From assembly GCA_050246315.1 (NCBI GenBank), contig JBFWWG010000010.1:32001-96000 (forward strand): a stretch of 64,000 nucleotides of DNA. Direction: 5' to 3'. The notes under the pieces were generated by a model. It ran no database searches and had not been told where the DNA came from. It saw nothing but the letters and a program-made list of their open reading frames with translations. Below are positions 2,009-21,357 of the stretch, one piece after another. A program made the position numbers and the translations under genes. Source of the DNA: Nitrospiraceae bacterium (GTDB lineage Bacteria > Nitrospirota > Nitrospiria > Nitrospirales > Nitrospiraceae). Positions within the stretch are counted from its first letter, which is position 1. Every line of letters starts with the position of its first letter.

Positions 2009-2214
2009 CCCACAGTTTTCATGAACGCTTCCGTTGCAGTCGCGGTCAGTAAGGCAAGACTCGCTTGAGGTGTCTACTCTCGCGCAACATCAATTAACTG
2101 GCGCTCGACCTCGCAAGCGCTTGGGACGGCGAGTTCGGCCGCGGTAGTCACACGGCCAGACTCGCCACCCGGTCGGTCAACAGACCGGTTCAAGTCTGCC
2201 TTGTATCATCATCT

Positions 2215-2383
2215 TGGAGCATATAGATGCTTGCCGATTCTTCGATAGGACGTGATAGATCGATCTGCCTCGGGTCGTCCAAGACCGGAAGGGAGCCCGA
2301 TCGTCACGTCCTCATCCACCCAAGCCCGAACAGTTGTCTGAGCCCCGAGCCCGTATCTATCGCAAGGTTGGGCGTCCCATCTC
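2215..2383 (+). ncRNA. Putative IS110 bridge RNA (target-binding and donor-binding loops); ends approximate
   Basis: Stem AGGACGTGA 2247-2255/TCACGTCCT 2304-2312 plus GATCG/CGATC enclose TCTGCCT (2264-2270) and AGGGAG (2290-2295), which match the insertion site; second stem 2319-2326/2366-2372 encloses ACAGTTG and GCAAG, resembling the end junction. Confidence 0.75.
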
Positions 2384-2394
2384 AAGGAGGACCG

Positions 2395-3345
2395 ATGCCA
2401 GACATGCCGATCTTTGTCGAATATTGATGTTTCCAAGACGCAGTTGGACCTGGCCGTGCGCCCCTCGGACGCGCGGGACACGCTAGTCCATGAGCGGTGG
2501 GGATTGACACGGTGGTCACCCATTTCAGTCAGGTCCCGCCGATCTTGATGGTACTGGCAGCCACGGGTGGGCTGGAGCGACCCCTGGTACGGGCGCTGGT
2601 CGCAGCCAGGTTGCCGCTGATTGTCGCGAATCCGCGACAGGTCCGAGACTGTGCCAAAGCGACCGGGCAATTGGCCAAGATCCATCGCCTGGATGCCGGG
2701 GTGCTGGCACGCTTTGCCGAGGCCGGCCAGCCCGTGCGCCGGCCGTATCCCGAGGCCGCCACGGAGGCGTTGGCGGCGCTGCTGGCGCGCCGCCGCCAGG
2801 TGATCGAGATGCTCACCACCGAAAAGAACCGGCTGAGTCCTGCCCCCAAGCCGATGCGCCGCTGGATCCACGCGCCTGTGCCCTGGCTCACGACCAAGCT
2901 GGCGCTGCTCGATGAGGAGCTTGATCATGCCATCCAGCAGCGCCCAGTTTGGCGAGAGCAGGAGGATTTGCTGTGGAGTGCCCCCGGGATTGGTCCCGTG
3001 GTGAGCCGGACCTTGCTGACTCACCTGCCTGGCCTGGCGACCCTGACCGGCAAGCCGATGGCCGCCCTGGTGGCCGTGGCTACCTTGACTTGCGATAGCG
3101 GCACCTTGCGAGGTCCGCGCCGGGTGTGGGGTGGCCGGGCTCCCGTCCGGGCAGCCCTGTATAGGGCCACCTTGGTGGCGACGAAGTGTACTTCCGGTGA
3201 TTCGCAATTTCTATCGCAGGCTGCGGGCCACCGACAAGGCGCCCAAAGTGGCCCTCGTGGCGTGCATGCGAAAGTTCCTGAGATTCTCAACGCGATGATG
3301 AAGCATTGTACGCCGTGGCGCTCCGTGGTGCCTCAGGGGACTTGA
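2395..3345 (+). pseudogene. IS110 DEDD recombinase/transposase pseudogene
   Basis: RBS AAGGAGG, MPDMPIFV, frameshift, IDVSKTQLD; VLAATGG (catalytic E lost), NPRQVR, KIHRLDA (usually KTDxxDA), PGIGP, DSG, GGRAPVRAALY; further frameshifts near 2495 and 3190. Confidence 0.9.
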
Positions 3346-3673
3346 CATTCAAGGCAGTGGCTCCCTCCTCGCGGCTCCGCGGCGGTACCCATTGCTCTTT
3401 CGATGCCATGGGTTCAGCGCGACGAACCGTCATGAATATTGTGGGCTAGTCATTTTCAGTAAATCCGCGCTTTCCGTCCTCCTGCCCACTACAGCCTCGC
3501 AGTCCGTGGGCTTTGCCGTTCGTAAACCTTTGCATCTTGGTGCGATTTTCTTGCGTTCCGACCTCACTATGGCATGATGCGACCAGCCGGAAACGACGCC
3601 TTTCTTTCGACATGCGAGGCCGGACCGGCATCATCTATACCTAATCCGCATTTTTCCAGGGGGGCGACGCGCA

Positions 3674-4720
3674 ATGGATATTTCCCAACTGCTCAGTTTC
3701 GGCGTGAAGGAGGGCGCATCGGACTGCCATCTCAGCGCGGGCGAACCGCCAATGCTGCGGCTCCACGGCGACATGAAAAAAGTGGACATGCCTCCCATGA
3801 CACAGGAGCAGGTCCATTCACTTGTCTACGACATCATGAGCGACGCCCAAAGAAAGAACTTTGAAGAGAATCTGGAATGTGATTTCTCTTTCGCGCTAGG
3901 TGATATCTCCCGATTCCGCGTGAATGTGTTTCTTCAGAACCGTGGATTAGCGGCGGTGTTTCGAACCATTCCGACGGAGATACTTCCACTGGAGAAATTA
4001 GGGATGCCCCCGATCGTCCGCCAGCTCTGCGACCGTGAAAAGGGCCTCATTCTCGTGACCGGACCAACTGGATCGGGCAAGTCCACCACGCTGGCCGGGA
4101 TGATCGACTATCTGAATAATTTGTACGAAGGGCACGTCATTACCATCGAAGATCCGATCGAGTTTGTGCACAAGTCGAAGAAATGTCTCGTCAACCAGCG
4201 AGAACTCGGCGTGCACACCAAGTCCTTTGCCAACGCGCTCCGATCCGCACTGCGGGAAGATCCTGATATCGTCCTGGTCGGTGAAATGCGAGATCTCGAA
4301 ACCATTCAATTGGCGCTCACCGCGGCGGAAACAGGCCACCTGGTCTTCGCCACCCTGCATACGTCCAGTGCGCCAAAGACGGTGGATCGGATCATCGACG
4401 CCTTTCCGCCCAATCAGCAGGCACAGGTACGAACCCAGCTTGCCGAAGCCCTCGAGGCGGTGCTGACGCAGACCCTGGTCAAGAAGAAGGCAGGAGGACG
4501 CGCCGCCGCCGTGGAGATTTTGGTCGCCACCACCGCCATCCGCAATCTCATCCGAGAGCAGAAGCTCCACCAAATCCCCGGCCTGATGCAGGCCAGTCAG
4601 AAGGAAGGGATGCAGACCATGGACATGGCACTGCTCGATCTGGCCACGCGGGGCATGATTACCAAAGCTGAGGCCCAATCGCGCAGCATGAACCCGAATC
4701 TATTCGCCAACGCCGTGTAG
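3674..4720 (+). CDS. pilT: Type IV pilus retraction ATPase PilT
   Basis: GPTGSGKSTT, TIEDPIE, LREDPD, GEMRD, TLHT, AIRNLIRE. Confidence 0.96.
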   Translation: MDISQLLSFGVKEGASDCHLSAGEPPMLRLHGDMKKVDMPPMTQEQVHSLVYDIMSDAQRKNFEENLECDFSFALGDISRFRVNVFLQNRGLAAVFRTIPTEILPLEKLGMPPIVRQLCDREKGLILVTGPTGSGKSTTLAGMIDYLNNLYEGHVITIEDPIEFVHKSKKCLVNQRELGVHTKSFANALRSALREDPDIVLVGEMRDLETIQLALTAAETGHLVFATLHTSSAPKTVDRIIDAFPPNQQAQVRTQLAEALEAVLTQTLVKKKAGGRAAAVEILVATTAIRNLIREQKLHQIPGLMQASQKEGMQTMDMALLDLATRGMITKAEAQSRSMNPNLFANAV

Positions 4721-4778
4721 ACCATCGACTATCGGGCACGTCGCTTCGAAGACAGCCCTACCTCAGACGGAGAGAGTC

Positions 4779-5954
4779 ATGGAAATTCGCGAGTTGCTCA
4801 AGATCATGGTCGACCGGGAAGGATCGGATCTGTACCTCACCGTAGATGCACCGCCCATCTACCGCATCCATGGCATAACACACCCCACGGCGGACCCGCC
4901 CTTCACCAACGAACAACTGGAGGCCCTCTCGCTGGCGTTGATGCGAGGACCGCAGCGGAGCGAGTTCGAAGAAAAGATGGAGATGAATCTGGCCTTGTAC
5001 TACAAAGACCTGGGTCGGTTTCGCGTGAACGTCTTTCGCCAGCGGGGCAACGTCGGCCTCGTGTTCCGACACATCAAAGCCGAGATTCAGAGTGTGGAAC
5101 AGCTCGGACTGCCTCCGATCATCAAGGACCTCGCCATGACCAAGCGCGGTCTCATCCTCGTAGTCGGTGCCACGGGGTCCGGGAAATCGACCACCTTGGC
5201 GGCCATGATCGACCACCGCAACGCGGTTTCGCCCGGACACATCATCTCGGTCGAGGATCCGATCGAATTCGTGCATCCACACAAGAAATGCCTTATCACG
5301 CAACGTGAAGTCGGCTTCGACACTCTGTCTTTCCACAACGCGCTCAAGAACACCCTGCGACAGGCGCCCGATGTGATCCTCATCGGCGAGATCCGGGACA
5401 CGGAAACCATGGAGGCGGCCATCACATTCGCGGAAACCGGCCATCTCTGCCTGGGGACACTCCACTCCAACAACGCCAACCAGGCTATCGAGCGCATCAT
5501 GAATTTCTTTCCGGTCGAGCGGCATCAGCAGATCTACCTGCAATTGTCACTGAATCTGCGCGCCATTCTATCCCAACGACTCGTCCCCTCCTTGGACGGA
5601 CGGCGGGCGCCAGCGATCGAAATCTTGCTGGATACTCCTCGCATCAAGGACCTGATCAAGAAGTCCGAGATCGACACGCTAAAGGAAGCGATGGAACAGG
5701 GCGTCGAGGAAGGATGTCAGACTTTCGACTACGTCTTATTTACTCTGTACAAGGAAGGAAAGATCAGCCTGGAGCAGGCCTTGATCAACGCCGACAGCGC
5801 AAACAACCTCCGCCTCAAGATCAAGCTGGAGGGTGTACGGACGGGCGATGAACAGCTGTCGAAACTATTGGAAGCAGACCATAAGGACAAGAGCCGCGAC
5901 CGAAAACCGACCTTCCAAATTGTCGGCAACGACCCGACCCTCCGGAGGAAGTAA
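4779..5954 (+). CDS. pilU: PilT/PilU family retraction ATPase (PilU-like)
   Basis: GATGSGKSTT, LRQAPDVILIGEIRD, TLHSNNANQA; tandem with pilT, lacks AIRNLIRE. Confidence 0.88.
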   Translation: MEIRELLKIMVDREGSDLYLTVDAPPIYRIHGITHPTADPPFTNEQLEALSLALMRGPQRSEFEEKMEMNLALYYKDLGRFRVNVFRQRGNVGLVFRHIKAEIQSVEQLGLPPIIKDLAMTKRGLILVVGATGSGKSTTLAAMIDHRNAVSPGHIISVEDPIEFVHPHKKCLITQREVGFDTLSFHNALKNTLRQAPDVILIGEIRDTETMEAAITFAETGHLCLGTLHSNNANQAIERIMNFFPVERHQQIYLQLSLNLRAILSQRLVPSLDGRRAPAIEILLDTPRIKDLIKKSEIDTLKEAMEQGVEEGCQTFDYVLFTLYKEGKISLEQALINADSANNLRLKIKLEGVRTGDEQLSKLLEADHKDKSRDRKPTFQIVGNDPTLRRK

Positions 5955-5976
5955 CGCCGCGGATCGGATCGGCCGC

Positions 5977-6537
5977 TCAAGGCATAGCAGCGGATGAATC
6001 CGTCAATTGCTCCAGGTACGCGGCCATCTGATCGAGCGCTTCCGCACTTAACTTCTGTCCATACCAACGCGGCATGGCATGGGTCGGATACCCCGGCACG
6101 ATGTACACGCCGGGATTCAGTATGGACTCCACAATATACTCCCGCACCGTTTGTGCCGTTCCCTTGTACTTGGGATCGGTCAACCGCTGGGGTCCCGTCG
6201 TTCCAAGCCTGAGAGCCGGACCTTCACGCCCCTGCGCTCCATCGATGCCAGGGATCGTGTGACAGACCGGACAACCCGCCTTGATAAACATGACCTGCAG
6301 CGGCTCATTGCCGCTGACCAGCGGCACCATCTCCTGTGTCAACTGCGGCCCAGTGATGCCTCCGCCATTCGGCGGTTCCGAAACCGTCGGGGTCCGGTTG
6401 ATCGTGTACAAAGCAAACAACAGGACGGCCCCGACGACCCAGGCCGTGATGCTTCGCTCCCGTCGTCGGTTAGCGGTCTTCCTGCTGTCGGATGTGGCGT
6501 CCCTGTCTGACGACGATGTCGGTGGTGAATCTGACAA
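5977..6537 (-). CDS. Membrane-anchored monoheme c-type cytochrome
   Basis: N-terminal TM, CPVCH heme motif, GPAL, YIVESILNP, distal Met (AMP). Confidence 0.82.
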   Translation of the reverse strand: MSDSPPTSSSDRDATSDSRKTANRRRERSITAWVVGAVLLFALYTINRTPTVSEPPNGGGITGPQLTQEMVPLVSGNEPLQVMFIKAGCPVCHTIPGIDGAQGREGPALRLGTTGPQRLTDPKYKGTAQTVREYIVESILNPGVYIVPGYPTHAMPRWYGQKLSAEALDQMAAYLEQLTDSSAAMP

Positions 6538-6703
6538 AGCTCCTCCCGCCCCGGCTCTTCCATCTGATGTACGCTTTAAGGTCTCGGCTCGAATCCGGCC
6601 GACCGATTCGAGCTTATCGACCTCTCAGCCCTGCATCGGATGCGCGCCTCATGGGTGAGAGAGTCTACCACCAACGCCGAGGAGGCTCTCAGCCCGCTCC
6701 CAA

Positions 6704-7561
6704 TCATTGAGGAACGGTTGTCGCCGCACAGCGGAATCCGATCGTCCGATCCCTGAATTCCGGCTCTGCTGCCACCCGGGAGGTCACACGCAACGCCACC
6801 GGCAGATCCGCCCAAGACCCACCCCGAATGACTCGTTTCTCCCCCTCGCCCGGGCCAACGGGATTTTTCGCGGGACTCTTCGGGTAATACTCGCGATCAT
6901 ACCAGTCCGCCACCCATTCAGCCGCATTCCCAGACATGTGAGTCACTCCATACGGACTCTTTCCCCCTTCCTTGAGCCCATGGCGCACGCTCATGCCTTC
7001 GCCACCGCTCGTCACCGCCGCCAGCGTGATGGCTTCGCTGACCCACTGCCCGCGATTGTAATTGGCGATGTCAACGAAGGGCTGCATGTGGCCCCACGGA
7101 TACCGCCGACCGTCGGTGCCGCGCGCGGCCTTCTCCCACTCCGCTTCAGTCGGAAGCCGTTTCCCTGCCCACTTACAATAGGCCTCCGCGTCGCTCCAAC
7201 TGACCCCGACAGCCGGCCGGTCCCCTGCCGCGGTTACAGCTTCTTCATCCCAGGTCGGGGGAGCACGGCGCTTGGCCGCTTCTAGAAACGCGGCGTATTG
7301 GCCGATCGTCACTTCATACTGATCGATATAGAAGGCGTCCAGCGTTACCTGATGCTGGGGACGCTCATTGGGCAACCCGTCGTCGCTGCCCATGGTAAAG
7401 GGCCCCTCCGGAATTTGTATCATGGGGCCATCCTTGCTCTTAACCGGCTCGGCGCCGAACGATAGGCCTCCGACAAGGATCACCATTCCCATAGTCATCA
7501 CGCCCATAGTCATCACGCCCGCCCCTACACCCGCTCGTCGTCGGTTCATGAGTCCCCCCAT
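6704..7561 (-). CDS. Formylglycine-generating enzyme (SUMF1/FGE-sulfatase) domain protein, secreted
   Basis: FTMGS, YEVT, RLPTEAEWEKAARG, MSGNAAEW, RGGSW, IGFRCA; signal peptide. Confidence 0.9.
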   Translation of the reverse strand: MGGLMNRRRAGVGAGVMTMGVMTMGMVILVGGLSFGAEPVKSKDGPMIQIPEGPFTMGSDDGLPNERPQHQVTLDAFYIDQYEVTIGQYAAFLEAAKRRAPPTWDEEAVTAAGDRPAVGVSWSDAEAYCKWAGKRLPTEAEWEKAARGTDGRRYPWGHMQPFVDIANYNRGQWVSEAITLAAVTSGGEGMSVRHGLKEGGKSPYGVTHMSGNAAEWVADWYDREYYPKSPAKNPVGPGEGEKRVIRGGSWADLPVALRVTSRVAAEPEFRDRTIGFRCAATTVPQ

Positions 7562-7736
7562 CCAGAGATCAAGCGCCGCGTATTATCGGGATAATCGGTG
7601 GCAGTGTACCGTCGGCCTCACTCAAACTCAACGGCTGATTGCGGGAACCCAGACAGGGAAAAGCGCCAATCAGCGCCATGACCAGAACCTGCCTCTCGTG
7701 ACAATTGTTGAGATTCGACCTGGAGAGAGAAGAGGA

Positions 7737-7814
7737 TGGTGTCCCCAACGGGATTCGAACCCGTGTTGCCGGCTTGAAAGGCCGGCGTCCTAGGCCAGGC
7801 TAGACGATGGGGAC
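7737..7814 (-). tRNA. tRNA-Glu(TTC)
   Basis: Cloverleaf GTCCCCA...TGGGGAC-ACCA, anticodon loop CTTTCAA, GGTTCGAATCC. Confidence 0.96.
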
Positions 7815-7843
7815 GCGCGAGAACGTAGAGGAATTGTGGAGCG

Positions 7844-7873
7844 ATAGTACCGGATGCGCCAGAAGAGAGTCAA
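7844..7873 (-). promoter_or_regulatory. Putative sigma70 promoter of tRNA-Glu
   Basis: TTGACT-18-TACTAT on minus strand just upstream of the tRNA. Confidence 0.5.
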
Positions 7874-8023
7874 TCATCGGCACGGAACCGGACGCGAACG
7901 ATCGCTCCTACTTCTGTGGCGCCAGAATCGGACGAGCTGCCGGGGTCTACCCTTGTACGATGTCTGCCGGTTCAGTATGCTCACCGACATTCACACGTCT
8001 CCACTTATGACGAGGCCTTGACC

Positions 8024-9034
8024 ATGATCCTATCCGTCCTACGTTCTCTCGCTTGCCCAGTCGGCACCCTATTATCTTGGTCGCTCTGCGTCGGCTCTGC
8101 CGAAGCCGGGCCATTGGTCTCAGAGCACATCGAAACCAGCAAACTGGCCACGGTCGGCGTGCTGCAACCAGGGGAGGATCTCACAAGTCCAGCCAGCAAG
8201 ACACATTTCACGATGCGGGGGACCGCCGTGCATCTTCGGGACGGATTCATCGTGACAGCGCGCCACGTCGTGGAGAAGGACGACAACGGGAGAAAGGTTG
8301 TTCCGCATCAGATCACCGTGATGACTGCCGAACTGGAGGAAACCGACGCCTCGTTGGTCGGTGGCAGTGCCTTTCTCGATTTAGCCGTCTTTCGCATCAA
8401 CGGCGACGTAGCCGCGCGCCTGCCACCCACGCGGTTCGCGGAGGGCGAGGCATCACCGGGCCAACCGGTCTACACGATCGGATACCCGCTCGGTTGGGGA
8501 CCGGCCATGGGATTCGGGCGAGTGGGCAATCCCAACACCTTTCTCCCAACCGCCGAAACCAGATTGCTCCAACTCGACCTCTCCGCCTGCAGCGGCAATT
8601 CAGGCGGAGGAGTGTTCAACGAACAAGGGGAACTCGTCGGCCTCATGCACGCCATCATTCAAACCGAAACCGTCCAAGGCGAGCAGCGTTGCAGTCGCTT
8701 CGGCTTTGCCGTCCCCGGTTCACTCGCGCACAAAATCGTAGCAGCGATCCTCAACGGCGAGCAGCCTCGGTTTTCACGTCTCGGCGTCGGGCTCACCCTG
8801 ATGCGAATGGAAGGCCGATGGCGTATCGCCGCCTCCGACGTGACAGGACCGGCCCGCGACGGAGGTATCCAAAAGGGCGATATCATTCTGGCCATCGACA
8901 ACACCGAACTGACGGACGGCGTGCAACTCAAGAACTATCTCATCGAACATACCGCCCCGGGGCAGCAGATCTCGGTGAAGGTCCTCCGGGGACAGACCGA
9001 ACAGGTGCTGAAAGTCACGCTGGGACAGTCATAG
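8024..9034 (+). CDS. Trypsin-like serine protease with PDZ domain (HtrA-like)
   Basis: TARHVV, DLAV, GNSGG catalytic triad; C-terminal PDZ (GIQKGDIILAID). Confidence 0.9.
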   Translation: MILSVLRSLACPVGTLLSWSLCVGSAEAGPLVSEHIETSKLATVGVLQPGEDLTSPASKTHFTMRGTAVHLRDGFIVTARHVVEKDDNGRKVVPHQITVMTAELEETDASLVGGSAFLDLAVFRINGDVAARLPPTRFAEGEASPGQPVYTIGYPLGWGPAMGFGRVGNPNTFLPTAETRLLQLDLSACSGNSGGGVFNEQGELVGLMHAIIQTETVQGEQRCSRFGFAVPGSLAHKIVAAILNGEQPRFSRLGVGLTLMRMEGRWRIAASDVTGPARDGGIQKGDIILAIDNTELTDGVQLKNYLIEHTAPGQQISVKVLRGQTEQVLKVTLGQS

Positions 9035-9150
9035 CCCGGAAGCCTGCCAGCGGACATCGTGAAGCGCCGGTCGTGAATGGTATCTCATTGAGGCCGGCGG
9101 TTCGCTGACAAGAAGGCACAGCCGGCGCTCAATATCGATTCAACCTCCGG

Positions 9151-9627
9151 TCAGCGGGCAATATATCGAGGAAGTCGTTCGACCAACGACGGGATTGCCG
9201 CCCAGATGTAGTCAATGATGCCGGTAACATAGGCCTTGGCGGCCTCGGGAGACTCCTGCCACTGCGGCAGGGCCTCGTGCAGATCGAGAATCGCGGACTC
9301 TCGACCGTAGCTGACCTCGTTGAACAACCGGACCTCTCGACCAAACCGCTGTCGACTGACATCCCGGTGATCTAAACTCATCGCCACCGGCAACACCGCT
9401 TTATCCAGCAGCGTCTGAGTGAGCCGGCGCTGAACATGACCTGTCACATCAGCCTCCTTGGCGAGCAAGAGTCCTCGCACGAACGGGTGGATCGCTTGAG
9501 GGCTGGCATCGATCCCTGCGGAGCCCACGAGGTAGCGGGCGTCTTTCCCCAGGTAGGCCTTCAGCGCGTGCTCGGCGACCAGGCTGCGGAAGATATTGCC
9601 GGTACAGATAAAGAGGATCGATGACAT
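9151..9627 (-). CDS. Low-molecular-weight protein tyrosine phosphatase family protein
   Basis: [13 protein letters not shown]-loop, SAG motif. Confidence 0.8.
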
Positions 9628-9708
9628 GCCACGACTCACAGGCCGATTTCACGAGCCGATCAATCCACCTCTCCCCTTTTGATTGTATCGAGAGGTAGAA
9701 TACCGCCC

Positions 9709-10605
9709 ATGATTGATTCAACCAAACCGCAATCGCGCCCGTCCGATCACGTTCTCGCCTTGACCGGCGAAGCTCGAAAACTCCAAACCCGCCTGTGCCG
9801 GCTGACCGGGCAAGCCATCGCCGATTACGGCATGATCGACGAGGGCGACACTATCATGGTCTGCCTGTCCGGCGGCAAGGACAGTTACGGGTTGCTGGAC
9901 ATCCTCCTGCTCCTACAAAGCCGGGCGCCGATCCGCTACAGCATCGTCGCGGTGAATCTAGATCAGAAACAGCCTGGGTTTCCCGCTCATGTCTTGCCCG
10001 AGTACCTGACCAAACTAGGCGTTCCCTTTCGCATCGAGACACGCGACACCTATTCGACGGTCAAACGCGTGATCCCCGAAGGCGACACGATGTGTTCTCT
10101 CTGCTCGCGACTGCGGCGTGCCATTCTTTATCAGGTCGCCACGGAGATTGGGGCGACGAAGATTGCCCTCGGCCACCATCGGGACGACCTCCTGGAAACG
10201 TTCATCCTGAATATGCTGTACAACGGCACGCTCAAGACCATGCCGCCCAAGCTCCGCTCGGACGACGGACGTCACGTCGTGATTCGACCGTTGGCTTATG
10301 TCCTGGAATCAGACCTCGCCGCCTATGCCGAAACCCGAAAATTCCCCATAATCCCCTGCGACCTCTGCGGTTCCCAAGAGCATCTCAAGCGGAAAGTCGT
10401 GAAGGCCATGTTGCGGACCTGGAACCAGGAGTCGCCCGGCTGCTTGGACAGCATGCTTGCGGCGCTAGGCAATGTCGTCCCCTCGCACCTCATGGATCGC
10501 GCCCTGTACGATTTTCAGACGCTGGAACCTGAGCATGACCCAGGCCGGCCGTCCGGGGCGATTCACCCACCCTCGCTCCTATCGTTGAAGTCATCGATGC
10601 GTTAA
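9709..10605 (+). CDS. ttcA: tRNA 2-thiocytidine(32) synthetase
   Basis: SGGKDS PP-loop, [26 protein letters not shown]. Confidence 0.95.
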
Positions 10606-10714
10606 CTCTGGCCCGATGACCGGGTCATCAAGACGACGCGGGCGCTGTCCCTCCCTGAGCAGGGAGAAACAGCGCCCGCACGGACGGCCCAGCCGACTTC
10701 TGGGTCAGAACCGG

Positions 10715-11089: not shown

Positions 11090-11260
11090 GCAATCCTCCT
11101 TTCGATTACCCCTTTCAATAATTCGCAACCACAAGATGATCATGATCGACCACGCCGATTCATCGCGTGTCCATGAACGCAGACGAGCACCCCTCTCGGC
11201 AACCGGCGTCTATATCGCAACTAACCCCCAAAAGGCAAGCCCCGATCGAAGCGGCGCCGG

Positions 11261-11812: not shown

Positions 11813-11953
11813 GATCCGTTCCGGTGTTCCGTCTGTTTCCCTCGGCTTGCCTGATGGCCCTCCGTCTCAGCACTGCGGAGTTTCGACGGGAACCTTACAC
11901 GACCGTGGAGCGAGATGTACAGGGCTCCTCCCGAACAGGGCGTGCAGACTTCA

Positions 11954-14500
11954 TTACGGACGGGGCTCTCGTTCGCCGGGACGTTTGGCTCGGCTGGTCG
12001 GCACCGCGCTCAGCGGGTCTTCGGGCCAATGGTGCTTCGGATAGCGCCCACGCAGTTCTTTTCGGACCTCGACATAAGATGTCGTCCAAAAGCCGGCGAG
12101 ATCGTTGGTGACCTGAACCGGCCGACCGGCCGGCGACAAGAGATGAATCGTGATGGAGACTTTCCCATCGGCGACTCTGGGCGTCTCTCGGCAGCCGAAT
12201 AGTTCCTGCAACCGCACCGCCAACACAGGCCGCTCGTTTGATTCATAGTCCAGGCGCACGCGCGAGCCGGTGGGGACCGCCATATGGGTCGGCGCGAGCC
12301 GATCCAACCGTCGCTGTTGCTCCCTGGTGAGCAGGCTATGGAGCGGCCCGGCAAGATCGAGTCGTTGCACCTGATCCCATCGCGTGAGCCCGTCCAGCCA
12401 TGGCCCTAGCCAGATAGCCAATCGATCAGACAGGGCTTCGTCGGAGACATCCGGCCAGTCGGATTTCGGCCCAGAGATCCGACGGAGCAACGCCACGCGC
12501 GCACGCCATTGATGGAGGTCCTTGGTCCAGGGCAGGCTCGACACGCCGGCTCGACGGATGGCGTCGACCAGCGCCTGACTAACCTGTTCCGGATCTGGAT
12601 CAGGCAACCCCTGATCGGAGAGCACCAAGGAACCCAACTGTCGTTGGCGGCGTGCCTGAACGACCTTTCGCCGTTCGTCCCATCGGATGAAATCGGCGGT
12701 CTGAATGAGCGGAGCGCAGGACGATTCAAGCTCATCCAACCGGACCGGCGCGGCCAAGTCGATGCGCGCCCATTGGCCGGTCCCGTCGAGACCGGCGATC
12801 ACCAAGTACTCCTCGGTCGCGAGCCCATCCGGAGAGGAAAACTGAGCACCCCGGCCGTTGGCCAGGAGATATCGGCCATCGCCGCCAGCCTGACGCTGTG
12901 CGATCCGGTCCGGATAGGCGAGCGCCACCAGCGCACCAAGCGAGCCGATCTGCGATGCCTTGGATACCGTGCGTGCCCTGGACTCATGTGCCTCCGCCAG
13001 TTGTCGCCGCAGCGACACGGCGGCTCGATGAATCCGATGGCCGAGTGTCCGATCATACCGGGCAGGGCCAGCTGGATCGTGGTCCTGTTCCAGCGCGTCC
13101 AACCGAAGACGCAAATCGGCATTGCGCCAGCCGCTTGGCCCTCGCAGAAGGTCGCGCTCGCTGAGCAAGGCCGCCACGTCGCAAGCCAGACTCCCGGCCC
13201 CCTGCTCCCAGGCGCGTTGTACCATGTGAGCCAGCCGTGGATGCAGCGGCAACTCCGCCATGCGCCGGCCATGCTGCGTCACTTTCCCCTTCCCATCGAG
13301 CCCGCCCAGTTGGATCAACAGGCTGCGAGCCTGGGTCGTCGCCCCCGTTGGAGGTGGATCGAGCCATGACAGTTCTCCCGGATCGTCTGTCCCCCACAGG
13401 GCCAATTCGAGGACCAGCGGAGCCAAGTCCGATTCGAGTATTTCCGGGGGACGCCGCGGCAGGAGCAGCTGTTGATCCGCTTCGGTCCATAAGCGATAAC
13501 AGACCCCGGGCTCCAATCGCCCGGCTCGGCCGCGCCGTTGTTCGGCCGAGTCTTGGGTCACACGGATCGTATCCAGACGTGTCAGTCCGGAGCGGGGGTC
13601 GTACCGCGGGATTCTCAAGAGTCCCGCATCGACCACAACCCGCACCCCTTCGATCGTCAAACTGGTCTCGGCGATCGAGGTGGTCAACACGACCTTGCGC
13701 CTACCGGGGCGGGGCGGGGCGATCGCCAGATCCTGCGCCTCCTGCGGCAAATCGCCATGCAACGGTGTAATGGTGATCGACTGGTCGAGGGGTGTCTCCT
13801 GCAAGCGACGCTCGACGCGACGGATCTCTGCCATGCCGGGAAGAAACACCAGGACGCTGCCGCTGTCCTGTCGGAGCGCGCGCCGGACGGTCTGTGCCAC
13901 CACTTGGTCCAGCGGAATCGAGATCCGTTGATCGAGATAGCAGGTTTCAACCGGATAACCCCGTCCTTTGCAGGAAATGATCGGTGCTTGGCCCAACAGA
14001 TCGGACAGCGCCGCAAAGTCCAACGTCGCCGACATGACGACTAGACGGAGGTCCGGTCGGAACAACCGTTGCGATTCCAATGTCAAGGCCAACCCGAGAT
14101 CGGCCTGAAGACTCCGCTCGTGGAACTCGTCGAAGAGCACGGCTCCGTATCCGGCGAGCGAGGGATCGTGCTGGAGCAGCCTGGTCAGAATGCCCTCCGT
14201 CACGACTTCGATCCTGGTTGTCCCTCCGACGTTCGTATCAAGACGGGTGCGATACCCGACCGTCATGCCAACGGCCTCTCCAAGAAGCCGCGCCATGTAA
14301 TGAGCCGCCGCCCTAGCGGCGAGGCGGCGGTGCTCCAGCAGCAGCAGCTTCTGTCCTTCCATCCAACCGGTCTTCAGCAAGGCCAACGGGACGCGGGTCG
14401 TCTTCCCGACCCCTGGCTCGGCCGTCAAGAGCACGGACCTCCGACGTTCGAGCGTGTTGCAGAGTTCGGGCAGGATCTGTTCGATCGGAAGGTTGGTCAT
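11954..14500 (-). CDS. hrpB: ATP-dependent RNA helicase HrpB
   Basis: GKTT, DEFHER, SAT, QRRGRAGR, C-terminal LLSPAGRPVQVT...GRYPKHHWP. Confidence 0.95.
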   Translation of the reverse strand: MTNLPIEQILPELCNTLERRRSVLLTAEPGVGKTTRVPLALLKTGWMEGQKLLLLEHRRLAARAAAHYMARLLGEAVGMTVGYRTRLDTNVGGTTRIEVVTEGILTRLLQHDPSLAGYGAVLFDEFHERSLQADLGLALTLESQRLFRPDLRLVVMSATLDFAALSDLLGQAPIISCKGRGYPVETCYLDQRISIPLDQVVAQTVRRALRQDSGSVLVFLPGMAEIRRVERRLQETPLDQSITITPLHGDLPQEAQDLAIAPPRPGRRKVVLTTSIAETSLTIEGVRVVVDAGLLRIPRYDPRSGLTRLDTIRVTQDSAEQRRGRAGRLEPGVCYRLWTEADQQLLLPRRPPEILESDLAPLVLELALWGTDDPGELSWLDPPPTGATTQARSLLIQLGGLDGKGKVTQHGRRMAELPLHPRLAHMVQRAWEQGAGSLACDVAALLSERDLLRGPSGWRNADLRLRLDALEQDHDPAGPARYDRTLGHRIHRAAVSLRRQLAEAHESRARTVSKASQIGSLGALVALAYPDRIAQRQAGGDGRYLLANGRGAQFSSPDGLATEEYLVIAGLDGTGQWARIDLAAPVRLDELESSCAPLIQTADFIRWDERRKVVQARRQRQLGSLVLSDQGLPDPDPEQVSQALVDAIRRAGVSSLPWTKDLHQWRARVALLRRISGPKSDWPDVSDEALSDRLAIWLGPWLDGLTRWDQVQRLDLAGPLHSLLTREQQRRLDRLAPTHMAVPTGSRVRLDYESNERPVLAVRLQELFGCRETPRVADGKVSITIHLLSPAGRPVQVTNDLAGFWTTSYVEVRKELRGRYPKHHWPEDPLSAVPTSRAKRPGEREPRP

Positions 14501-14644
14501 GACTCGCACGCCGCATGCCGGGTTGGTCCGATGACTGTATCAGAAACAGATTGTGGAAACCGACAGAGAGAGACCGCCAATTGATAGGACAGAAAGACGG
14601 CGACCCCGTCGATGCCGGAGGCGAATCAGGGTATAATTCGCTCC

Positions 14645-14881
14645 ATGCCGTCGAGAAAACAGACTAGCCGAGTCAGCCAGCTCAGCCAGCTAAGATGGAC
14701 CAGCGGGAAGCCGATCCAACCAGGTTGGTATTGGTATCGGGGCCTGATTGATGAAGCCGATCCCTTGATCGTGCTAGTGGATGAAGCCGGGTATTTCCAG
14801 TGGCCCGATGGAGCGTTCGAGGATGTCAGACAGACCGATGGGCAATGGGCCGGTCCCATCGCTCTGCCCAGCGAAACCTAA
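14645..14881 (+). CDS. Small Trp-rich hypothetical protein
   Basis: Intergenic ORF with PIQPGWYWYR...GQWAGPI. Confidence 0.6.
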   Translation: MPSRKQTSRVSQLSQLRWTSGKPIQPGWYWYRGLIDEADPLIVLVDEAGYFQWPDGAFEDVRQTDGQWAGPIALPSET

Positions 14882-14887
14882 CCAGCC

Positions 14888-15496
14888 TCACCCCGCTACC
14901 GACTGACCCTTCGGAACAGGTTCGCCGGACTCCGGGGAGAGTCCGAGCGTTTCGAACCTCTGTTTCAGCGAGGCGAGAATGGCGCTACGAAGCCCATCGC
15001 GATAGCGCGCGAATGACTCATCTCCGAGGTACCGGTCGAGGGTTCGCGGGAGACGCTTCCACCACGCTTGGGCCGCATTCCTCGCGCAGCGGGCGCCCCC
15101 CTCTCCACCGGAGAGGAGCGCTCTGACCTGCCGCTCAAAAAATCCGACGTGCGCCTCCTCGTCCGTGAGGATTTCGGCCATGTCCGGCCGGATTGTGACC
15201 AGCAAGGTTGCGAACTCAAGACCCAATGCCTCATACCCGTACAAGTGGACAGCCAAGGCGCACCACTGCTCAGGCACCCTCGGCAGGCGCTCCCGTTTCG
15301 ATGACTGAGCGCCCACCAGCTCCTCGAACTGCCGCAGGTGCCGTCGCTCATCCTGCTCATGTCGCTTAAGGAAATTCATGACGGAGGTGGACAGCGTTTG
15401 CCTCTGCGCGGCCTGGACCGCCCACATCGCCATGGCTTCGGCCCGAAGGAACCGCTCCAACAAGGCACGTTCGCAGCTCTGAGGCAACAAGATCAT
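14888..15496 (-). CDS. Ferritin-like di-iron domain protein
   Basis: E...DERRH and E...DEEAH motifs in helical protein; ATGA overlap with upstream gene. Confidence 0.7.
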   Translation of the reverse strand: MILLPQSCERALLERFLRAEAMAMWAVQAAQRQTLSTSVMNFLKRHEQDERRHLRQFEELVGAQSSKRERLPRVPEQWCALAVHLYGYEALGLEFATLLVTIRPDMAEILTDEEAHVGFFERQVRALLSGGEGGARCARNAAQAWWKRLPRTLDRYLGDESFARYRDGLRSAILASLKQRFETLGLSPESGEPVPKGQSVAG

Positions 15497-16248
15497 GGCG
15501 TGATCGGTTTCTCTGCGCAGACAATCAGCACCGCAGTCAACGCATCCTCACGGGAATAGCGATGAAGATACGACAGTTCGGAAAGGACCTGCTCGATGTC
15601 CGGGCTTTCCACCCCTCGCCATTCACGAATCGCGAATCCCGCCTCGCTCAGGATCGCCCGCCAGTCGGACGATCGCAGACGGTTCACGTACGAACTTCGA
15701 TTCCATTTCATCAGGTTCCATAGCCAGTCTGGATATCGCAAACAATCAAAAAGGCGGCTCCTGTCCCCGGAGGGATAGACGCCATGATCGGCCAAGTCGA
15801 TCTGCGCAATCAAGAGGCCTCCCGGACGCAACACTCGCGCGCATTCGCGGAGCACCAGCGCTGGATATCGCAAATGCTCAAACGCATTGTGTGACCAGAT
15901 CAGGTCGTACCGTGCGGAAGGCAAGGGGATCTCTCGCCCCTCGTACAGCACGTAGTCAAGTCCACTCCTCGAGGCCTCCTCCATCGAACAATAGGCGACC
16001 ACGTCAAGCGCCGTACAGCTTCGAGCCCCGGCCGTCTTCGCCAGGTGCAGAACTTCCAACGTGTGGCCCGGGCCGATTTCAAGGATGTCGCGTCCCTCCA
16101 CCGATGCAAACGACCGGTAGAAGTCGTAGACACGACGAGCCTCCCTCAGGTCGCCGTTCAATCCGGTCGAGTGAAGGCGCTGAGCGGCCCGGGCCAGGGG
16201 TGCAATCCCCATCAGCAGGTTTTGAGCAATCTCGCGCGCAATCCCCAT
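15493..16248 (-). CDS. Class I SAM-dependent methyltransferase
   Basis: ILEIGPG, YDLIWS, FEH, RVLRPGG. Confidence 0.88.
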   Translation of the reverse strand: MGIAREIAQNLLMGIAPLARAAQRLHSTGLNGDLREARRVYDFYRSFASVEGRDILEIGPGHTLEVLHLAKTAGARSCTALDVVAYCSMEEASRSGLDYVLYEGREIPLPSARYDLIWSHNAFEHLRYPALVLRECARVLRPGGLLIAQIDLADHGVYPSGDRSRLFDCLRYPDWLWNLMKWNRSSYVNRLRSSDWRAILSEAGFAIREWRGVESPDIEQVLSELSYLHRYSREDALTAVLIVCAEKPITP

Positions 16249-16845
16249 TTCGGATCTTGCTCGGCTCCTACCCAGAACTCGTCCCGGTCTGCTCGGATAG
16301 ATTGACAGGACACTACAATCATGAAATCAGGGATTGCGCAAGGGAAGCGTGCCAAGGTGAAACGCAGGCGATCGGGTCCTTGTGGCGGTTGAGGGCAGGG
16401 ACCTCGATTGCCGGATCTTTAACCCCAAGGCGTCGTGGAACGCGATCGGCGCGGCTTGACGATCATTCGTGCAGGGGTGATAGGCATCGGTCGAAACAAA
16501 AGGCCCCGTGGCGGAAACGTCCACAACCTCGAGACCTTCGTCGTACCGAGGGCGAGAGGAACATTCCCCACACCCCATTCCGTGGAAGTCGCTCCCAGAA
16601 CAGCCTCCTCGGCATCATGCCCACATGAGAGGAGCAGCCTCGATACTGTTCGCCATATGTTCGCGATTGACACAAGTCCAGGCACTCACGAGAGAAAACG
16701 AAAATGGGCATGACCGCCTCGCCTCACCCTGTAGGCTCCGACACACAATCGGCCAGCGGACAGCCGATGCACCAGTCTTAGACAAACTAGATCCTGGCAG
16801 CAACAGCCTCATTTTGCCTCAAGTCAAATGTTAGAATTTGCCACC

Positions 16846-17028
16846 ATGCCCTGCCCGATTTGCAAAACTCCTGTCACCTGGCAGGACAACCCCGCTCGGC
16901 CCTTCTGTTCCAAACGGTGCAAACTCATCGACCTGGGCCGATGGGCCTCCGGGCAGTACCGAATTCCTGGTCAAAAGCTCGCGTCGTCTCCACCCGAATC
17001 CAGTCCGACAGGGCAGAAACCGGAGTGA
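16846..17028 (+). CDS. yacG: DNA gyrase inhibitor YacG
   Basis: CPIC...[16 protein letters not shown]...YRIP. Confidence 0.93.
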
Positions 17029-17111
17029 ACGGGTTTGCCGGCTGCACGACGATCCGCGGACTTCCATGACACTATTAATGTACTTGAATCGTCAGATCCT
17101 GGCACACGTGG

Positions 17112-18011
17112 TCACGGCTTCGGCAGACCGAGGACAGTGGCTACCAACCAATCATGGACCCGGTCTCCGAGCAGGCGCTTGACCGCGGCCCTGATCTTGG
17201 CATCCGTCCCGACAAGATAGCGAACGCGAGGACGAACCGCAGTCAGTGCATGGGCCACAACCTTTGCAACTGCCTCGGCCGGGATGGCGCGCCTCTCCGC
17301 ATCCTTGGCGTGGCCGGCCAAACCCTGGGTCAATGGATCGTAGAGTGCGACCAGATCGTGATCGGCCGAGGCTCGAATGGATTCGGCCAAGGCAGTTGAC
17401 TTGCTCCAGATCGGAGTAGCAATAGAACCCGGCTCCACCAGGGAGACCAGGATCCCCCAGGCCCTGAGCTCAAGGCGAAGCGCATCCGTCATGGCCTCCA
17501 GGGCGAATTTGGAGGCTCCATAGAGCCCCAGAAACGGCAGGGTTTCCAAGCCGGCAATCGACGACATATTGACGATACGGCCCCGTCCTTTGCGCAACAA
17601 GGGAAGAAATGCCTGTATGACCGCGATCTGTCCGATGACATTCACTTCGAACTGTTTGCGGACGAAATTCAACGGCACCGTTTCGATTGGGCCAGGCACA
17701 GCGATCCCCGCGTTGTTGATCAGTCCAGCCAAACCGAGGTCCCCGATCGCCTCAGAGACCGTCCGTACCGCGGCCGCGATCGAATCTCGATCCGTCACAT
17801 CGAGCCGCAGAGCTGTGAGCCGTGGAGAGGCCTTGGCCTGCAAGGCCACCCCATCTCGCTCGTCTCTCACTCCCGCAAAAAGTCGGAACCCGAGCCGATC
17901 AAGGTGAATCGCGCAAGCCTCTCCGATTCCGCTGGAAGCCCCCGTGATTACGATTCCTGTCGGCTGAGTCGACGCTGACCCTCCCGCCCTCATCTCCACC
18001 TTCATGACCAC
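17112..18011 (-). CDS. Short-chain dehydrogenase/reductase
   Basis: TGASSGIG, NNAG, YGASK; start uncertain. Confidence 0.92.
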   Translation of the reverse strand: MVMKVEMRAGGSASTQPTGIVITGASSGIGEACAIHLDRLGFRLFAGVRDERDGVALQAKASPRLTALRLDVTDRDSIAAAVRTVSEAIGDLGLAGLINNAGIAVPGPIETVPLNFVRKQFEVNVIGQIAVIQAFLPLLRKGRGRIVNMSSIAGLETLPFLGLYGASKFALEAMTDALRLELRAWGILVSLVEPGSIATPIWSKSTALAESIRASADHDLVALYDPLTQGLAGHAKDAERRAIPAEAVAKVVAHALTAVRPRVRYLVGTDAKIRAAVKRLLGDRVHDWLVATVLGLPKP

Positions 18012-18743
18012 ACGGCCTCCAGAAGTTCACCAGGAACGGTACCACGACCCTTCTTCGGAAGATACCGCTTCCTCGACCGAGATGAACGAATCCTCTTCCG
18101 CGCAACAGGCTTTCGTTGTCATGAGGTGAATGACGCGTGGTCGATTATCGCAAGAATCGGCGGACCTCGACGGTCTCGGAATCTTGTCATCGCTACGGCC
18201 GGCTCTTGGACCCTGAAGCAATTCAGGACCGAATCTGACCGAGTGGCTGGCAGGAATCGTACGGATCCGGTGGTTTTGGCGTACCCTGTCCACAATCACC
18301 AGCGGCACGCAGCGGCCAGCTCAAGCGTCTCGATTGGTCGGCGTTGTAATCCAGAGCGTGGGTCGCCGCCGGACAGCTTCTCCACGGTCAGAGCACCTTC
18401 ATCAGAGTGCACTGGAAATTCGACCGTGTGTATAGCCCCAAGCCGCAACCGGCCGACCATGGGAGACCGGTTCGCTATCAGATGCCACCACTCCCCGGGC
18501 TCCCGTCACATACGCAGGGTGTCTTGCTCTTCATTCACCGCACCCAAGGCCTGCAGAGTCGGGCGCTCGACGACGGCTCCGACGTGTTCATTGATACCAG
18601 TCGCACCAGCATAAGCCTCTGACCTCTCATCCGGCGTTGCACAGATACGGGATGACGGGATATCGTGAAGCCGGAGGCCGCACCTTCTTGCTTGGTTCAA
18701 GTGCGTCCGGCACATGAGCGCTGCCGGAAAAGGAGCTCGCCCG

Positions 18744-20036
18744 ATGGCGTCAACCAGGTCCATGCCTTCACGCATCGTCATTGTCGGGGGCGGCTTCGGT
18801 GGCCTCGCGGCGGCACAAGGATTGGCACGGACACCGGTCGAGATCCTGATGATCGACCGGACCAACCACCACGTGTTTCAACCGTTGTTGTACCAGGTCG
18901 CCACAGCCGCATTATCCCCTGGGGACATCGCCTGGCCGCTACGGACCGCCCTGCGTGGCCAACAAAATCTCCGGCTGGTGATGGATGAGGTCGAAACGAT
19001 CGACCGCACGGCACACCAAGTCATCGTCAGGAACGGTCCTGCGATTCCTTTTGATACGTTGATTCTGGCTCCAGGGTCCCAGCCCTCTTACTTCGGACAT
19101 GACGAGTGGGCTGTTCATGCCCCGGGTCTGAAGACGTTGCCCGATGCCTTGGCGCTCCGTGAGCGGCTGCTGTTGGCCTTCGAAGAGGCGGATCACCGCC
19201 GAATGTTTGCAGCCCCCCACCCACTCACCTTCGTCATTGTCGGAGGAGGACCGACCGGCGTTGAACTGGCTGGCGCACTCGCCGAGATCGGACGCCGAGC
19301 GATGGCACCAGACTTCCCGACCTTGCGATGGGACGAGGTCCGCATTCTTCTGGTCGAAGGCGGGGAGCGACTGTTGCCGGGATTCAGTCCGAACCTGTCT
19401 GACAAGGCTACGATCGCGCTCCAACGCATGGGTGTCACGGTCATACTCAAGTCAACGGTTCATGATATACGCGATTCCGGCGTCATGGTCGGTGATCGAT
19501 TCATCGAACCGGCCTCTGTGATCTGGGCGGCGGGCAACCGAGCCTCCCTCCTCGTGGAAAGTCTTGGGAGCCTCCTGGACGGAACAGGGCGGGTCCTGGT
19601 GCGACCCGACCTGTCGATCCCAGGCGATCCGTGGATCTTCGTGATCGGCGATGCGGCCCACTGTCGCGGGATCGATGATCAGGCGCTCCCGGGACTCGCG
19701 CCAGTGGCAATGCAGCAGGGCCAATACGTCGCGGACCTGGTCCGCCGGCAATTGGAACCGGACCAACGGCCTCCCTTTGCCTATACGAACCGAGGTCTGC
19801 TCGCCACCATCGGACGCGCGAAGGCGGTCGCACAGTTCGGCTCCTGGCAATTGTCCGGCCTTCCTGCCTGGCTGATCTGGTGCATCGTCCATATCTTCTT
19901 TCTGATCAGCCTGCGCAACCGCTTTCGAGTCATGTCCGAGTGGATCTGGTATTATTTTACCTTCAAGCCAGGGGCTCGGCTCATCTACGGCGGGACGAAT
20001 CGACGTTCCGAGAGCGAGAGGTCGCACAGTCCATGA
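18744..20036 (+). CDS. ndh: Type II NADH dehydrogenase
   Basis: GGGFGG, FQPLLYQVAT, GGGPTGVELAG, WAAG, IGD, ATIGR. Confidence 0.9.
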   Translation: MASTRSMPSRIVIVGGGFGGLAAAQGLARTPVEILMIDRTNHHVFQPLLYQVATAALSPGDIAWPLRTALRGQQNLRLVMDEVETIDRTAHQVIVRNGPAIPFDTLILAPGSQPSYFGHDEWAVHAPGLKTLPDALALRERLLLAFEEADHRRMFAAPHPLTFVIVGGGPTGVELAGALAEIGRRAMAPDFPTLRWDEVRILLVEGGERLLPGFSPNLSDKATIALQRMGVTVILKSTVHDIRDSGVMVGDRFIEPASVIWAAGNRASLLVESLGSLLDGTGRVLVRPDLSIPGDPWIFVIGDAAHCRGIDDQALPGLAPVAMQQGQYVADLVRRQLEPDQRPPFAYTNRGLLATIGRAKAVAQFGSWQLSGLPAWLIWCIVHIFFLISLRNRFRVMSEWIWYYFTFKPGARLIYGGTNRRSESERSHSP

Positions 20037-20330
20037 CAGATCGACGTTTGCTCACTCGGGTCCGCACAGCGACGTGCGGAGACTCGGCTACAAGATTCTG
20101 GCCTATCCAGAAGATCCCGGTGGAATCATGATGAGCTCGCCGACATCCGCGAGCGTTCTACAGGGTTCGGGGAACCGATAATGAAGCCGGAACGGGGGAC
20201 GAGCAGTTCAAGCTCCAGTCCGATCCTCCGCTACGCGAAACTGGCGAGGATAAAGATGCCCGCCAAGAGGCTGTTCACGACAGGCGCGTGCCGGAGAATC
20301 GCAGGACAGGCCATGGATCGCAGGCCGAGT

Positions 20331-21357
20331 TCAATTGGCGACTTCGTCGATGATTGTGGATCGGATGAGTGCTCTCCACTGCTCGGTGGCGGACTCCTTG
20401 GTCAAGGAGCCCGTGGTGGCGGTCACCCTCGTGACCTGTTCGGTTTCTCAATCGTTGCGGACGGGCACGCCGAGGACCAACGACCTGATATTGGCCCGGT
20501 TGATCACGCGCGTGGCATCGATGCTGTCCATGCAAGGCATACTCACATCCATGACAACCACATCCGGCGACAGGCTGTGCGCCAGTTCGATCGCTTCGAT
20601 GCCGTTGCCGGCTTCGCTGAAGATGCAGACATCCTCGTACCCTTCTAACCCGCATTATTCATGACCGCTGCTACTGCAACCGCCGATACGCCGCTGCGAC
20701 AGGCTTGGCTGCCGGTCTCCCGCACCCAAGCGGGCAGGCTCGCCGCTCGGTCGGTCGACATACGGTTTCAAGTATGCCTTCCTTCCTCGCGGCCCCGCGT
20801 GCCCGTCTCGCGTAGCGTCTTGGCGGTTTCGTCACGAACCGTCATGAATAATGCGGGCTAACCTGCTCCGCAGCCCATGCCACACCATCGCATGGTCATC
20901 GACCAGCGGGACGCGAATCACCTTGCTCTTGTAGGAACCGCGAGGTACGGGGCCCTGGTGAAGCGTCTCATGAGACGCCGAAGGGTGAGCCGATTTCGCG
21001 ACCGGCATCCTCTGTTCTTGGGACACCACAGTGGCCGCGTGTTCGGAGTGACACACGTCACGCCCCTTCCCTACCCAGTATTGGAATCGATCACCGACGT
21101 GCCACCCATGCCCGTCATCCACTCGCCAATACTGCAGGGTCCGAACCGTAACGGCATCGTCCCGTAGATAGCCCGCTCAGTGAACTCTTCCACCCGTCCC
21201 TGGTCGATCTCGGCGATATACAACCGTTGTTGCGATCGCGTCAACTCCTCGGTCCTCTCCGTGACCCGAATTTCCAACCCTTCCGTCAATTGCTGCAATG
21301 ATGCTTCGGCCCGTTTCCGCTCGGTGATGCACGCATCATGACCATTCAGCAGCGGCG
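20331..21357 (-). pseudogene. Decayed NarX-like sensor kinase/receiver hybrid, interrupted by a MITE
   Basis: Fragments ITERKRAE (PAS end), FGPCSIGEWMTGMGG (HATPase remnant), receiver VDDHAMV...GLRSRL|EGYEDV...PDVVVMDVSMP; internal stops and deletions. Confidence 0.8.
20649..20857. mobile_element. IS1380-like MITE, copy 2 (209 bp)
   Basis: Perfect 17-bp TIR CCCGCATTATTCATGAC/GTCATGAATAATGCGGG; TSD CTAA at 20645-20648 and 20858-20861; excision restores the reading frame. Family assignment is from TIR resemblance. Confidence 0.9.

Follow-up and report, generated by a model that had tools for sequence, protein, structure and literature searches.

The closest described counterparts of the element analyzed here are IS110-family insertion sequences (IS) that insert into multicopy repeats under the direction of their own RNA. 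In the accessible part of the published account of IS621 (PMC11208160), the left guide reads the same as the left target's top strand, the right guide is complementary to the right target, and the natural target lies at the 3' side of an extragenic palindrome present in many copies, the repetitive extragenic palindromic (REP) element. For ISPpu10 of Pseudomonas putida, the available portion of a preprint (bioRxiv 10.64898/2026.03.19.712850) reports a covarying stem-loop in a REP, formed by pairing between the left target and a conserved 5' sequence. Here we describe an IS110-family element at positions 2202-3362 of a 64,000-nucleotide stretch (the window) of contig JBFWWG010000010.1 from a Nitrospiraceae bacterium (assembly GCA_050246315.1, denoted G000). 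The element sits inside a MITE (miniature inverted-repeat transposable element), an uninterrupted copy of which lies elsewhere in the window. We consider it probable (about 0.85) that 2202-3362 is a dead IS110 that was once inserted by RNA-guided recombination into the hairpin of an IS1380-derived MITE. In the literature outside subscription journals, we found no description of an IS110-family element targeting a MITE, nor of such a MITE in Nitrospira.

Excision of 2202-3362 fuses ...GTCTGCCT with CCCTCCTCGCGG..., a product identical to the one given in an earlier reading of the window (the first-pass annotation). The sequence which that annotation had quoted for the empty copy was found at 20750-20800, with its core CT (20778-20779) vacant, and ACGAACCGTCATGAATA is indeed the terminus shared by the filled and the empty MITE. 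A core CT stands on either side of the insert (2200-2201 and 3361-3362), and the insert begins with TGTATC immediately after the left one. When the flanks were compared with a MITE profile built from 26 near-full-length copies, the left flank matched model positions 71-140 (E 1.2e-7) and the right flank positions 134-209 (E 5.5e-5). Because both flanks match the profile, the 1161-bp insert splits a single MITE at model position ~137-140. Without the insert the filled MITE measures 276 bp and is a diverged, longer member of the family; direct BLAST comparison with the empty MITE aligns only 50 nucleotides at 82% and 27 nucleotides at 93%. Its ends were refined to 2009 and 3445, with GTAG on the left and CTAG on the right. 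The orthologous intergenic region in two related genomes (G001 and G003), located between the same two genes (window 2008/3450), contains neither MITE nor IS, and the MITE at 2009-3445 is therefore an insertion.

The element is a decayed relic of the bridge-recombinase group within the IS110 family. An intact 316-amino-acid relative encoded by G001 matches PF01548 (E 6.2e-23) and PF02371 (E 2.4e-21), and the longest reading frame in the window copy (2497-3345) matches the same two families (E 6.6e-11 and 1.5e-7, respectively). The PF01548 match of the window frame spans only model positions 39-147 because the gene is frameshifted: relative to the intact G001 protein, with which it shares ~56% amino acid identity, it switches reading frame at least three times. 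Thus, where the first-pass annotation spoke of an RNA-guided recombinase, the family assignment is borne out by both domains, whereas the copy itself is a frameshifted relic in a genome without an intact one. Beyond the window, the same contig of G000 carries a second copy (C10:117980-119118) with 68% DNA identity to the window copy and one frameshift. A third piece (C3:336212-336447, L026) retains only the last 79 codons and the right end. The window copy, the second copy, and all 10 copies found in G001 lack terminal inverted repeats and have a single CT core per side. In a quick tree, the second copy, the G001 element, and two further loci (L037 and L038) form one fully supported clade. IS110 circles rebuild a promoter at their junction. 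In a circular form of the window element, TTGACA (3342-3347) would sit 17 nucleotides upstream of TATCAT (2204-2209), a spacing also found in the G001 element, and these motifs are a possible junction promoter.

The 194-nucleotide non-coding left end of the element (2202-2395) is predicted to have the architecture of a bridge RNA, and comparison with relatives supports this. We collected 80 loci, of which 72 had a left end; 49 remained after removal of sequences with >90% identity, and 47 after setting aside two without an upstream flank. In 22 of the 47 relatives, the left end repeats the seven nucleotides to the left of the element without mismatch at a fixed place, and in 40 of 47 it does so with at most one mismatch, compared to 1% and 21%, respectively, when flanks were swapped among loci. 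For the right guide, taken as the eight nucleotides after a small hairpin, the reverse complement matches the right flank with at most one mismatch in 23 of the 37 loci that could be parsed (the other ten of the 47 were left out), compared to 4.5% in the swapped control. The single mismatch usually falls at the outermost base, which suggests that the working guide consists of CT and five further bases. A consensus fold of 30 left ends (RNAalifold) contains two stems that enclose the guide loops. Of its 32 pairs, 18 show compensatory changes; for instance, columns 64/126 are occupied by AU in 14 and GC in 14. The window copy, the second copy, and the G001 element have left ends that align well, and in the first loop these differ exactly where the targets do.

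In the window copy, the left guide matches its own site at 7/7 positions, and the right guide matches the CT and 4/5 of the following bases. The extended right guide that had been proposed, GGAAGGGAG, was located at 2287-2295, and its reverse complement differs from CTTCCTTCC (20778-20786) of the empty MITE at one of nine positions. In the donor loop, the window stretch ACAGTTGTCT (2330-2339) corresponds to ACAGTTGC, which is conserved among the relatives and equals the right-end terminus in 36 of the 37 parsed. All 37 end in ACAG(T/C)TGCT, as ACAGTTGCT in 36 cases and as ACAGCTGCT in one (L053); the right end of the window copy, GCAGTGGCT, has two differences from this terminus.

Insertion at this MITE position is recurrent. 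The second G000 copy is flanked by MITE model positions 2-137 and 130-208, so that both full copies in this genome interrupt a MITE at ~137-140 and in the same orientation. G001 contains 10 IS110 copies that are identical over 1145 bp, and seven of these (L002, L024, L029, L031, L032, L035, and L036) lie in a MITE at model ~139/130; among the other three, one is in a second palindromic repeat (L016) and two are in unique DNA (L033 and L034). Asking whether other copies avoid the MITE, or this position in it, we thus found the same position used by 2/2 full copies in G000 and 7/10 copies in G001. Two right-end fragments in another genome (G002) were left uncounted, as their flanks are the same as those of two G001 copies. 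The insertion junctions are exact at CT in the full G000 copies and in all 10 G001 copies.

We also scanned metagenome contigs using the left target joined to the element start as the query, which pre-selects the left target and makes the result a biased sample of the clade. The scan returned at least 120 loci. Among the matches listed, 97 had no IS110 left end and were read as chance, and 23 had one; seven of these 23 lie in the MITE (two repeat G001 sites), six in the second repeat family (two of them by a loose pattern match), and one has too little flank. Two loci with unusual arrangements were also seen. In L037, from an assembly titled Nitrospira, positions 1321-3700 hold two tandem IS110 copies next to MITE right halves; a partial right half separates the tandem copies, and the upstream flank is partly N. 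L022 (G007:C23, from another genus) contains at ~1350-2030 what is left of a different IS110 relative. This remnant lies within a member of the same MITE family, but oppositely oriented and at a different MITE position, and its left guide fits that other site.

The hairpin whose 3' arm serves as the left target is conserved by compensation. In the 84 unoccupied G000 copies whose target columns have no gap, the arm pair is CATAC/GTATG in 33, CGTAC/GTACG in 10, and CAGAC/GTCTG in 5, and all five arm positions are paired in 55 of the 84. The targets of three IS110 lineages correspond to these three compensated forms, and the left guides of the lineages appear to have been retuned by a single base to the hairpin variant that each uses. 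The window copy carries the guides TCTGC-CT and CT-CCCTT and sits at GTCTGC-CT-CCCTC; the second copy has the left guide TATGC and the site GTATGC; and the G001 element has the left guide TACGC, with GTACGC as the site of nine of its 10 copies. TATGC is also the commonest left target in G000 (36 of 84 copies). In G001, we sampled empty MITEs as 19 close pairs of exact terminal-repeat matches, 17 of which have the hairpin, and GTACGC-CT occurs in 14 of these 17. If G-T pairs are assumed to be tolerated, the right guide of the G001 element fits five of its sites perfectly, four with one mismatch, and one with two. The guides also fit the G001 insertions in unique DNA (L033, 4/5 left and 5/5 right; L034, 5/5 left).

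The 12-nucleotide target specified by the window guides (TCTGC-CT-CCCTT) occurs exactly five times in G000, four times in empty MITE copies outside the window and once in unique sequence. Exact 12-nucleotide targets outside MITEs (C3:22706, C9:178386, and C2:579141) are unique, unoccupied sequence and were read as chance. The first-pass annotation had placed both a filled and an empty target in the window. An uninterrupted MITE is present there as claimed, but what it offers is a near match (TATGC-CT-TCCTT), with one left mismatch and one G-T position.

The hairpin is not confined to the MITE. The same module forms the center of the second palindromic repeat, an abundant one of ~125 bp whose 26-nucleotide inverted ends are its own (for example, outside the window, G000 C4:10533, C2:225, and C1:649521, all on the minus strand). 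A loose pattern for this repeat gives 172 matches in G000, some of which arise by chance. Insertions within it are the G001 copy L016, the L038 copy, and the G000 fragment at C3:336212-336447. Since this repeat both carries the hairpin and takes insertions, the target is the hairpin module, with the MITE as its main carrier. The idea that the IS110 is programmed to target a MITE family therefore stands as regards repeated insertion at one MITE position and needs correcting as regards the target itself, a module that the second repeat shares. Tentatively, and with more doubt than conviction, we suggest that IS110 guides in these genomes track the commonest hairpin variant of the host (TACGC in G001, TATGC in G000, and TCTGC in a minor subfamily), with G-T pairing on the right covering the variable outer stem. 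The module, moving between unrelated repeats, might then be the unit of targeting and co-evolution, and its drift could be an escape from IS110.

The MITE family itself is large. In G000, it comprises 26 near-full-length BLAST copies, and the profile gives 161 matches, 65 of them full length, which cover 0.61% of the genome. Matches to the 16-nucleotide terminal repeat number 230 in G000 and 176 in G001, and 0 for a reversed control. Identical four-nucleotide flanks were found in 17 of 40 end-to-end copies, compared to 9.1 expected when right flanks were shuffled, and 58 of 80 flanks are YTAR. The presence of terminal repeats and a target duplication argues against filing the family as REP. 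Many genomes of the same taxonomic family are rich in it, and the other families searched within the order have few copies or none. Nothing claimed here depends on the unpublished genome G009.

Derivation of the MITE from an IS1380-family element is supported, and the earlier label "IS1380-like" holds. Two relatives encode 472-amino-acid PF13701 proteins, one in a 1696-bp element in G003 (L118, E 3.6e-119) and one in G010 (L117, E 1.6e-121). The termini of both elements are the 16-19-nucleotide terminal repeat of the MITE, and their flanks (CTAG/CTAG and CTAA/CTAA) are of the same YTAR type. Nothing in the autonomous element ends read corresponds to the interior of the MITE and its hairpin module. 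No autonomous parent was detected in G000, which has no PF13701 match, and pairs of terminal repeats 1-4 kb apart in that genome enclosed ordinary genes in the 11 cases translated. Five MITE-rich relatives (G003, G005, G010, G019, and G024) have many MITE ends and no match to this IS110, and IS relatives in other phyla have unrelated targets. The MITE is independent of the IS110, which is the later exploiter.

Some further features of the repeats were noted. The filled MITE adjoins the upstream open reading frame at 758-2008, whose stop codon TAG (2006-2008) belongs to the flanking tetranucleotide GTAG; the G001 and G003 orthologues of this frame stop with TAA at the same place. The right half of some MITE copies, including the filled one (window 3376-3412), contains an extra 30-nucleotide palindromic insert of the GGTACCCATTGC...GCAATGGGT type, which also occurs in G000 C10:113965-114204 and in further MITE copies. 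A piece resembling this palindrome also turns up within members of the second repeat family. In appearance, the repeats are mosaics built of common modules. G000 also has eight matches to PF01797 (Y1 transposase), four in open frames of 307-328 amino acids and four shorter or broken; Y1 transposase frames lie at C20:16382-16708, C4:264748-265071, C4:302449-302772, and C1:569545-569868. REP and REPIN sequences, which are moved by RAYT, are short palindromes tied to a Y1 transposase gene present in single copy. At the three Y1 loci viewed, there was no link to either repeat family, save for one loose match.

In the mechanism that we propose, the non-coding left end would fold into two stem-loops, each with an internal loop. 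The first loop would present two guides: a left one of seven nucleotides that repeats the top strand of the left target together with the core CT, and a right one that is complementary to CT and the five bases after it. Integration at CT would leave CT on both sides of the element. With the hairpin carried by ~100 MITE copies per genome and by the second repeat family, many intergenic landing sites would be available. What the sequences show is the anatomy of the element, its recurrent insertion position, the correspondence of guides and targets, and a MITE family with IS1380-type ends; the left-end RNA is presumably made and guides recombination, and insertion at the hairpin would be harmless to the host.

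Several results weigh against this reading. PF01548 matches in G000 are limited to the two full, broken copies, and the assembly contains no intact recombinase of the family. In the quick tree, the window lineage lies in an open polytomy beside the clade that holds the second copy and the G001 element, and this tree gives no support for a single origin of hairpin targeting. The right target of the window copy differs from its guide at one of five positions, and only two of the 10 G001 right targets are strictly equal to the guide. The exact 12-nucleotide target of the second copy occurs twice in G000, both times outside MITEs, and nine of the 23 left-end-bearing matches listed in the metagenome scan lie in neither repeat family. 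A search of the element against Rfam, at gathering and at E-value thresholds, gave nothing relevant apart from an sX15 match below threshold on the opposite strand, and single-sequence folds were no better than shuffles, both for the target DNA (z -0.44) and for the G001 left-end RNA (z -1.58).

Could the recombinase instead read the hairpin through protein-DNA or structure recognition, with the guide matches as a by-product? Such recognition would fit the constant use of a conserved hairpin's 3' arm as the left target, the looseness of the right-side matches, and the added specificity that is reported for the target stem-loop of ISPpu10 (accessible part of bioRxiv 10.64898/2026.03.19.712850). 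However, in three lineages the left guide follows the hairpin variant base by base, L033 and L034 are still guide-matched in repeat-free unique DNA, and in 47 relatives whose targets are unrelated the flank is repeated at one and the same loop position. We regard recognition of the hairpin alone as improbable. A further explanation, namely that the IS spread between MITEs by homologous recombination or gene conversion and not by targeted transposition, can draw on the dispersed homology that the MITE copies provide. Yet the flanking homology is short and 56-88% identical, three of the 10 G001 copies are outside the MITE at sites that match the guides, and the junctions are exact at CT in every copy, and we therefore consider this very unlikely.

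The first-pass annotation had raised the possibility that the IS110 hitch-hikes when the MITE moves, that is, that the MITE and the IS110 form a composite unit moved by an IS1380-family transposase. The terminal repeats around the window IS110 look intact, and since both MITE and IS are missing at the orthologous site in G001 and G003, arrival of the window MITE and IS in one step would fit. In G001, however, identical IS copies are accompanied by host MITE flanks that are 56-88% identical in all 21 pairs. Identical IS copies in diverged flanks indicate that the G001 insertions were separate events, into MITEs that had already diverged. No composite unit was seen twice, the PF13701 transposase family has no match in G000, and IS copies are also present outside MITEs. 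Hitch-hiking was accordingly given up as an explanation and is, in our judgment, about as implausible as spread by recombination. Chance co-occurrence of the IS and the MITE would draw on nothing beyond the single case in the window, and it is already refuted: seven of 10 copies in G001 and both full copies in G000 lie in a family that covers 0.61% of G000, and the probability of seven or more of 10 at p = 0.006 is ~3e-14, taking the MITE share of G001 to be like that of G000. RNA-guided insertion into the hairpin is the reading that we retain, and the features of the two MITEs and the element are collected in Table 1.

Table 1. Features of the filled and empty MITEs and of the IS110-family element (window positions).
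Feature	Position	Strand	Basis
Left flank of host MITE, GTAG	2005..2008	.	Sequence reading
Left part of host MITE	2009..2201	+	Profile match, model 71-140; left terminal repeat starts at 2009
Hairpin arms of filled MITE	2181-2185 and 2194-2198	+	Sequence reading
Left target TCTGC, then core CT (filled MITE)	2195-2199; 2200-2201	+	Sequence reading
IS110-family element, decayed relic, 1161 bp including right core CT (3361-3362)	2202..3362	+	
Predicted target-binding stem-loop of bridge-RNA-like left end	2248..2311	+	Alignments, compensatory pairs in the consensus fold, guide positions confirmed in relatives
Target loop: left guide TCTGCCT; small hairpin; right guide GAAGGGAG	2264-2270; 2271-2287; 2288-2295		
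Predicted donor-binding stem-loop	2324..2373	+	Alignment and consensus fold
Recombinase pseudogene	2396..3345	+	Frame comparison with intact G001 protein
TTGACA in right end	3342..3347	+	Sequence reading
Right part of host MITE	3363..3445	+	Profile match, model 134-209; right target CCCTC 3363-3367; right terminal repeat 3430-3445
Right flank of host MITE, CTAG	3446..3449	.	Sequence reading
Uninterrupted MITE, 209 bp	20649..20857	+	BLAST, profile
Hairpin arms of empty MITE	20759-20763 and 20772-20776		
Left target TATGC; core CT; right target TCCTT (empty MITE)	20773-20777; 20778-20779; 20780-20784		
CTAA, 4-bp target duplication of empty MITE	20645..20648 (left); 20858-20861 (right)	.	

Elsewhere in the window, a transfer RNA gene at 7740-7814 (minus strand) was the sole above-threshold Rfam match in 1500-22000.

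Bridge recombinases are in development as programmable insertion tools, for which a natural case of guide retuning and mismatch tolerance would be useful. The genomes considered here provide a natural series: three related left guides that are one base apart, ten identical copies with differing right targets, and ~100 empty sites per genome. This series would permit direct tests of the guide rules, of the tolerance for G-T pairs, and of the role of the target stem-loop. It also suggests that the multicopy safe harbor of an IS110 element can come from another transposon family rather than from REP. For annotation, MITE::IS110 nests such as the one in the window should be treated as two elements.

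Overall, the mechanism appears to be the one already known from IS110 bridge recombinases, and the strategy the one that IS621, ISPpu9, and ISPpu10 follow on REP. Like IS621 of E. coli, as far as the accessible text on that element describes it, the element has a DEDD and PF02371 recombinase, a predicted left-end bridge RNA with target and donor loops, and a CT core, and the window copy starts with TGTATC right after the CT. Where IS621 uses a REP, the landing pad here is a hairpin within a MITE that derives from a transposon and has terminal repeats and a 4-bp duplication; the guides differ, and the G000 copies are dead. ISPpu9 and ISPpu10 likewise insert into REP, and the left target of ISPpu10 lies in a stem-loop, according to the available portions of the sources, just as it forms the 3' hairpin arm here. 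Those two elements belong to another host phylum and use another class of repeat, and any role of the stem-loop in our case is putative; moreover, ISPpu9 carries its own MITE-like passenger, unlike the situation described here. IS4321 and IS5075, of the IS1111 family, also aim at part of another mobile element, as cited in the accessible parts of PMC11187229 and PMC11208160. They differ in being members of the IS1111 subgroup, in which the RNA lies downstream of the gene and the inverted repeats are subterminal, and in that their target is a transposon end and not an internal MITE hairpin. What is new in comparison with all of these systems is the carrier of the landing pad, an IS1380-derived MITE together with a second repeat that shares its module, and the natural series of single-base retuning.

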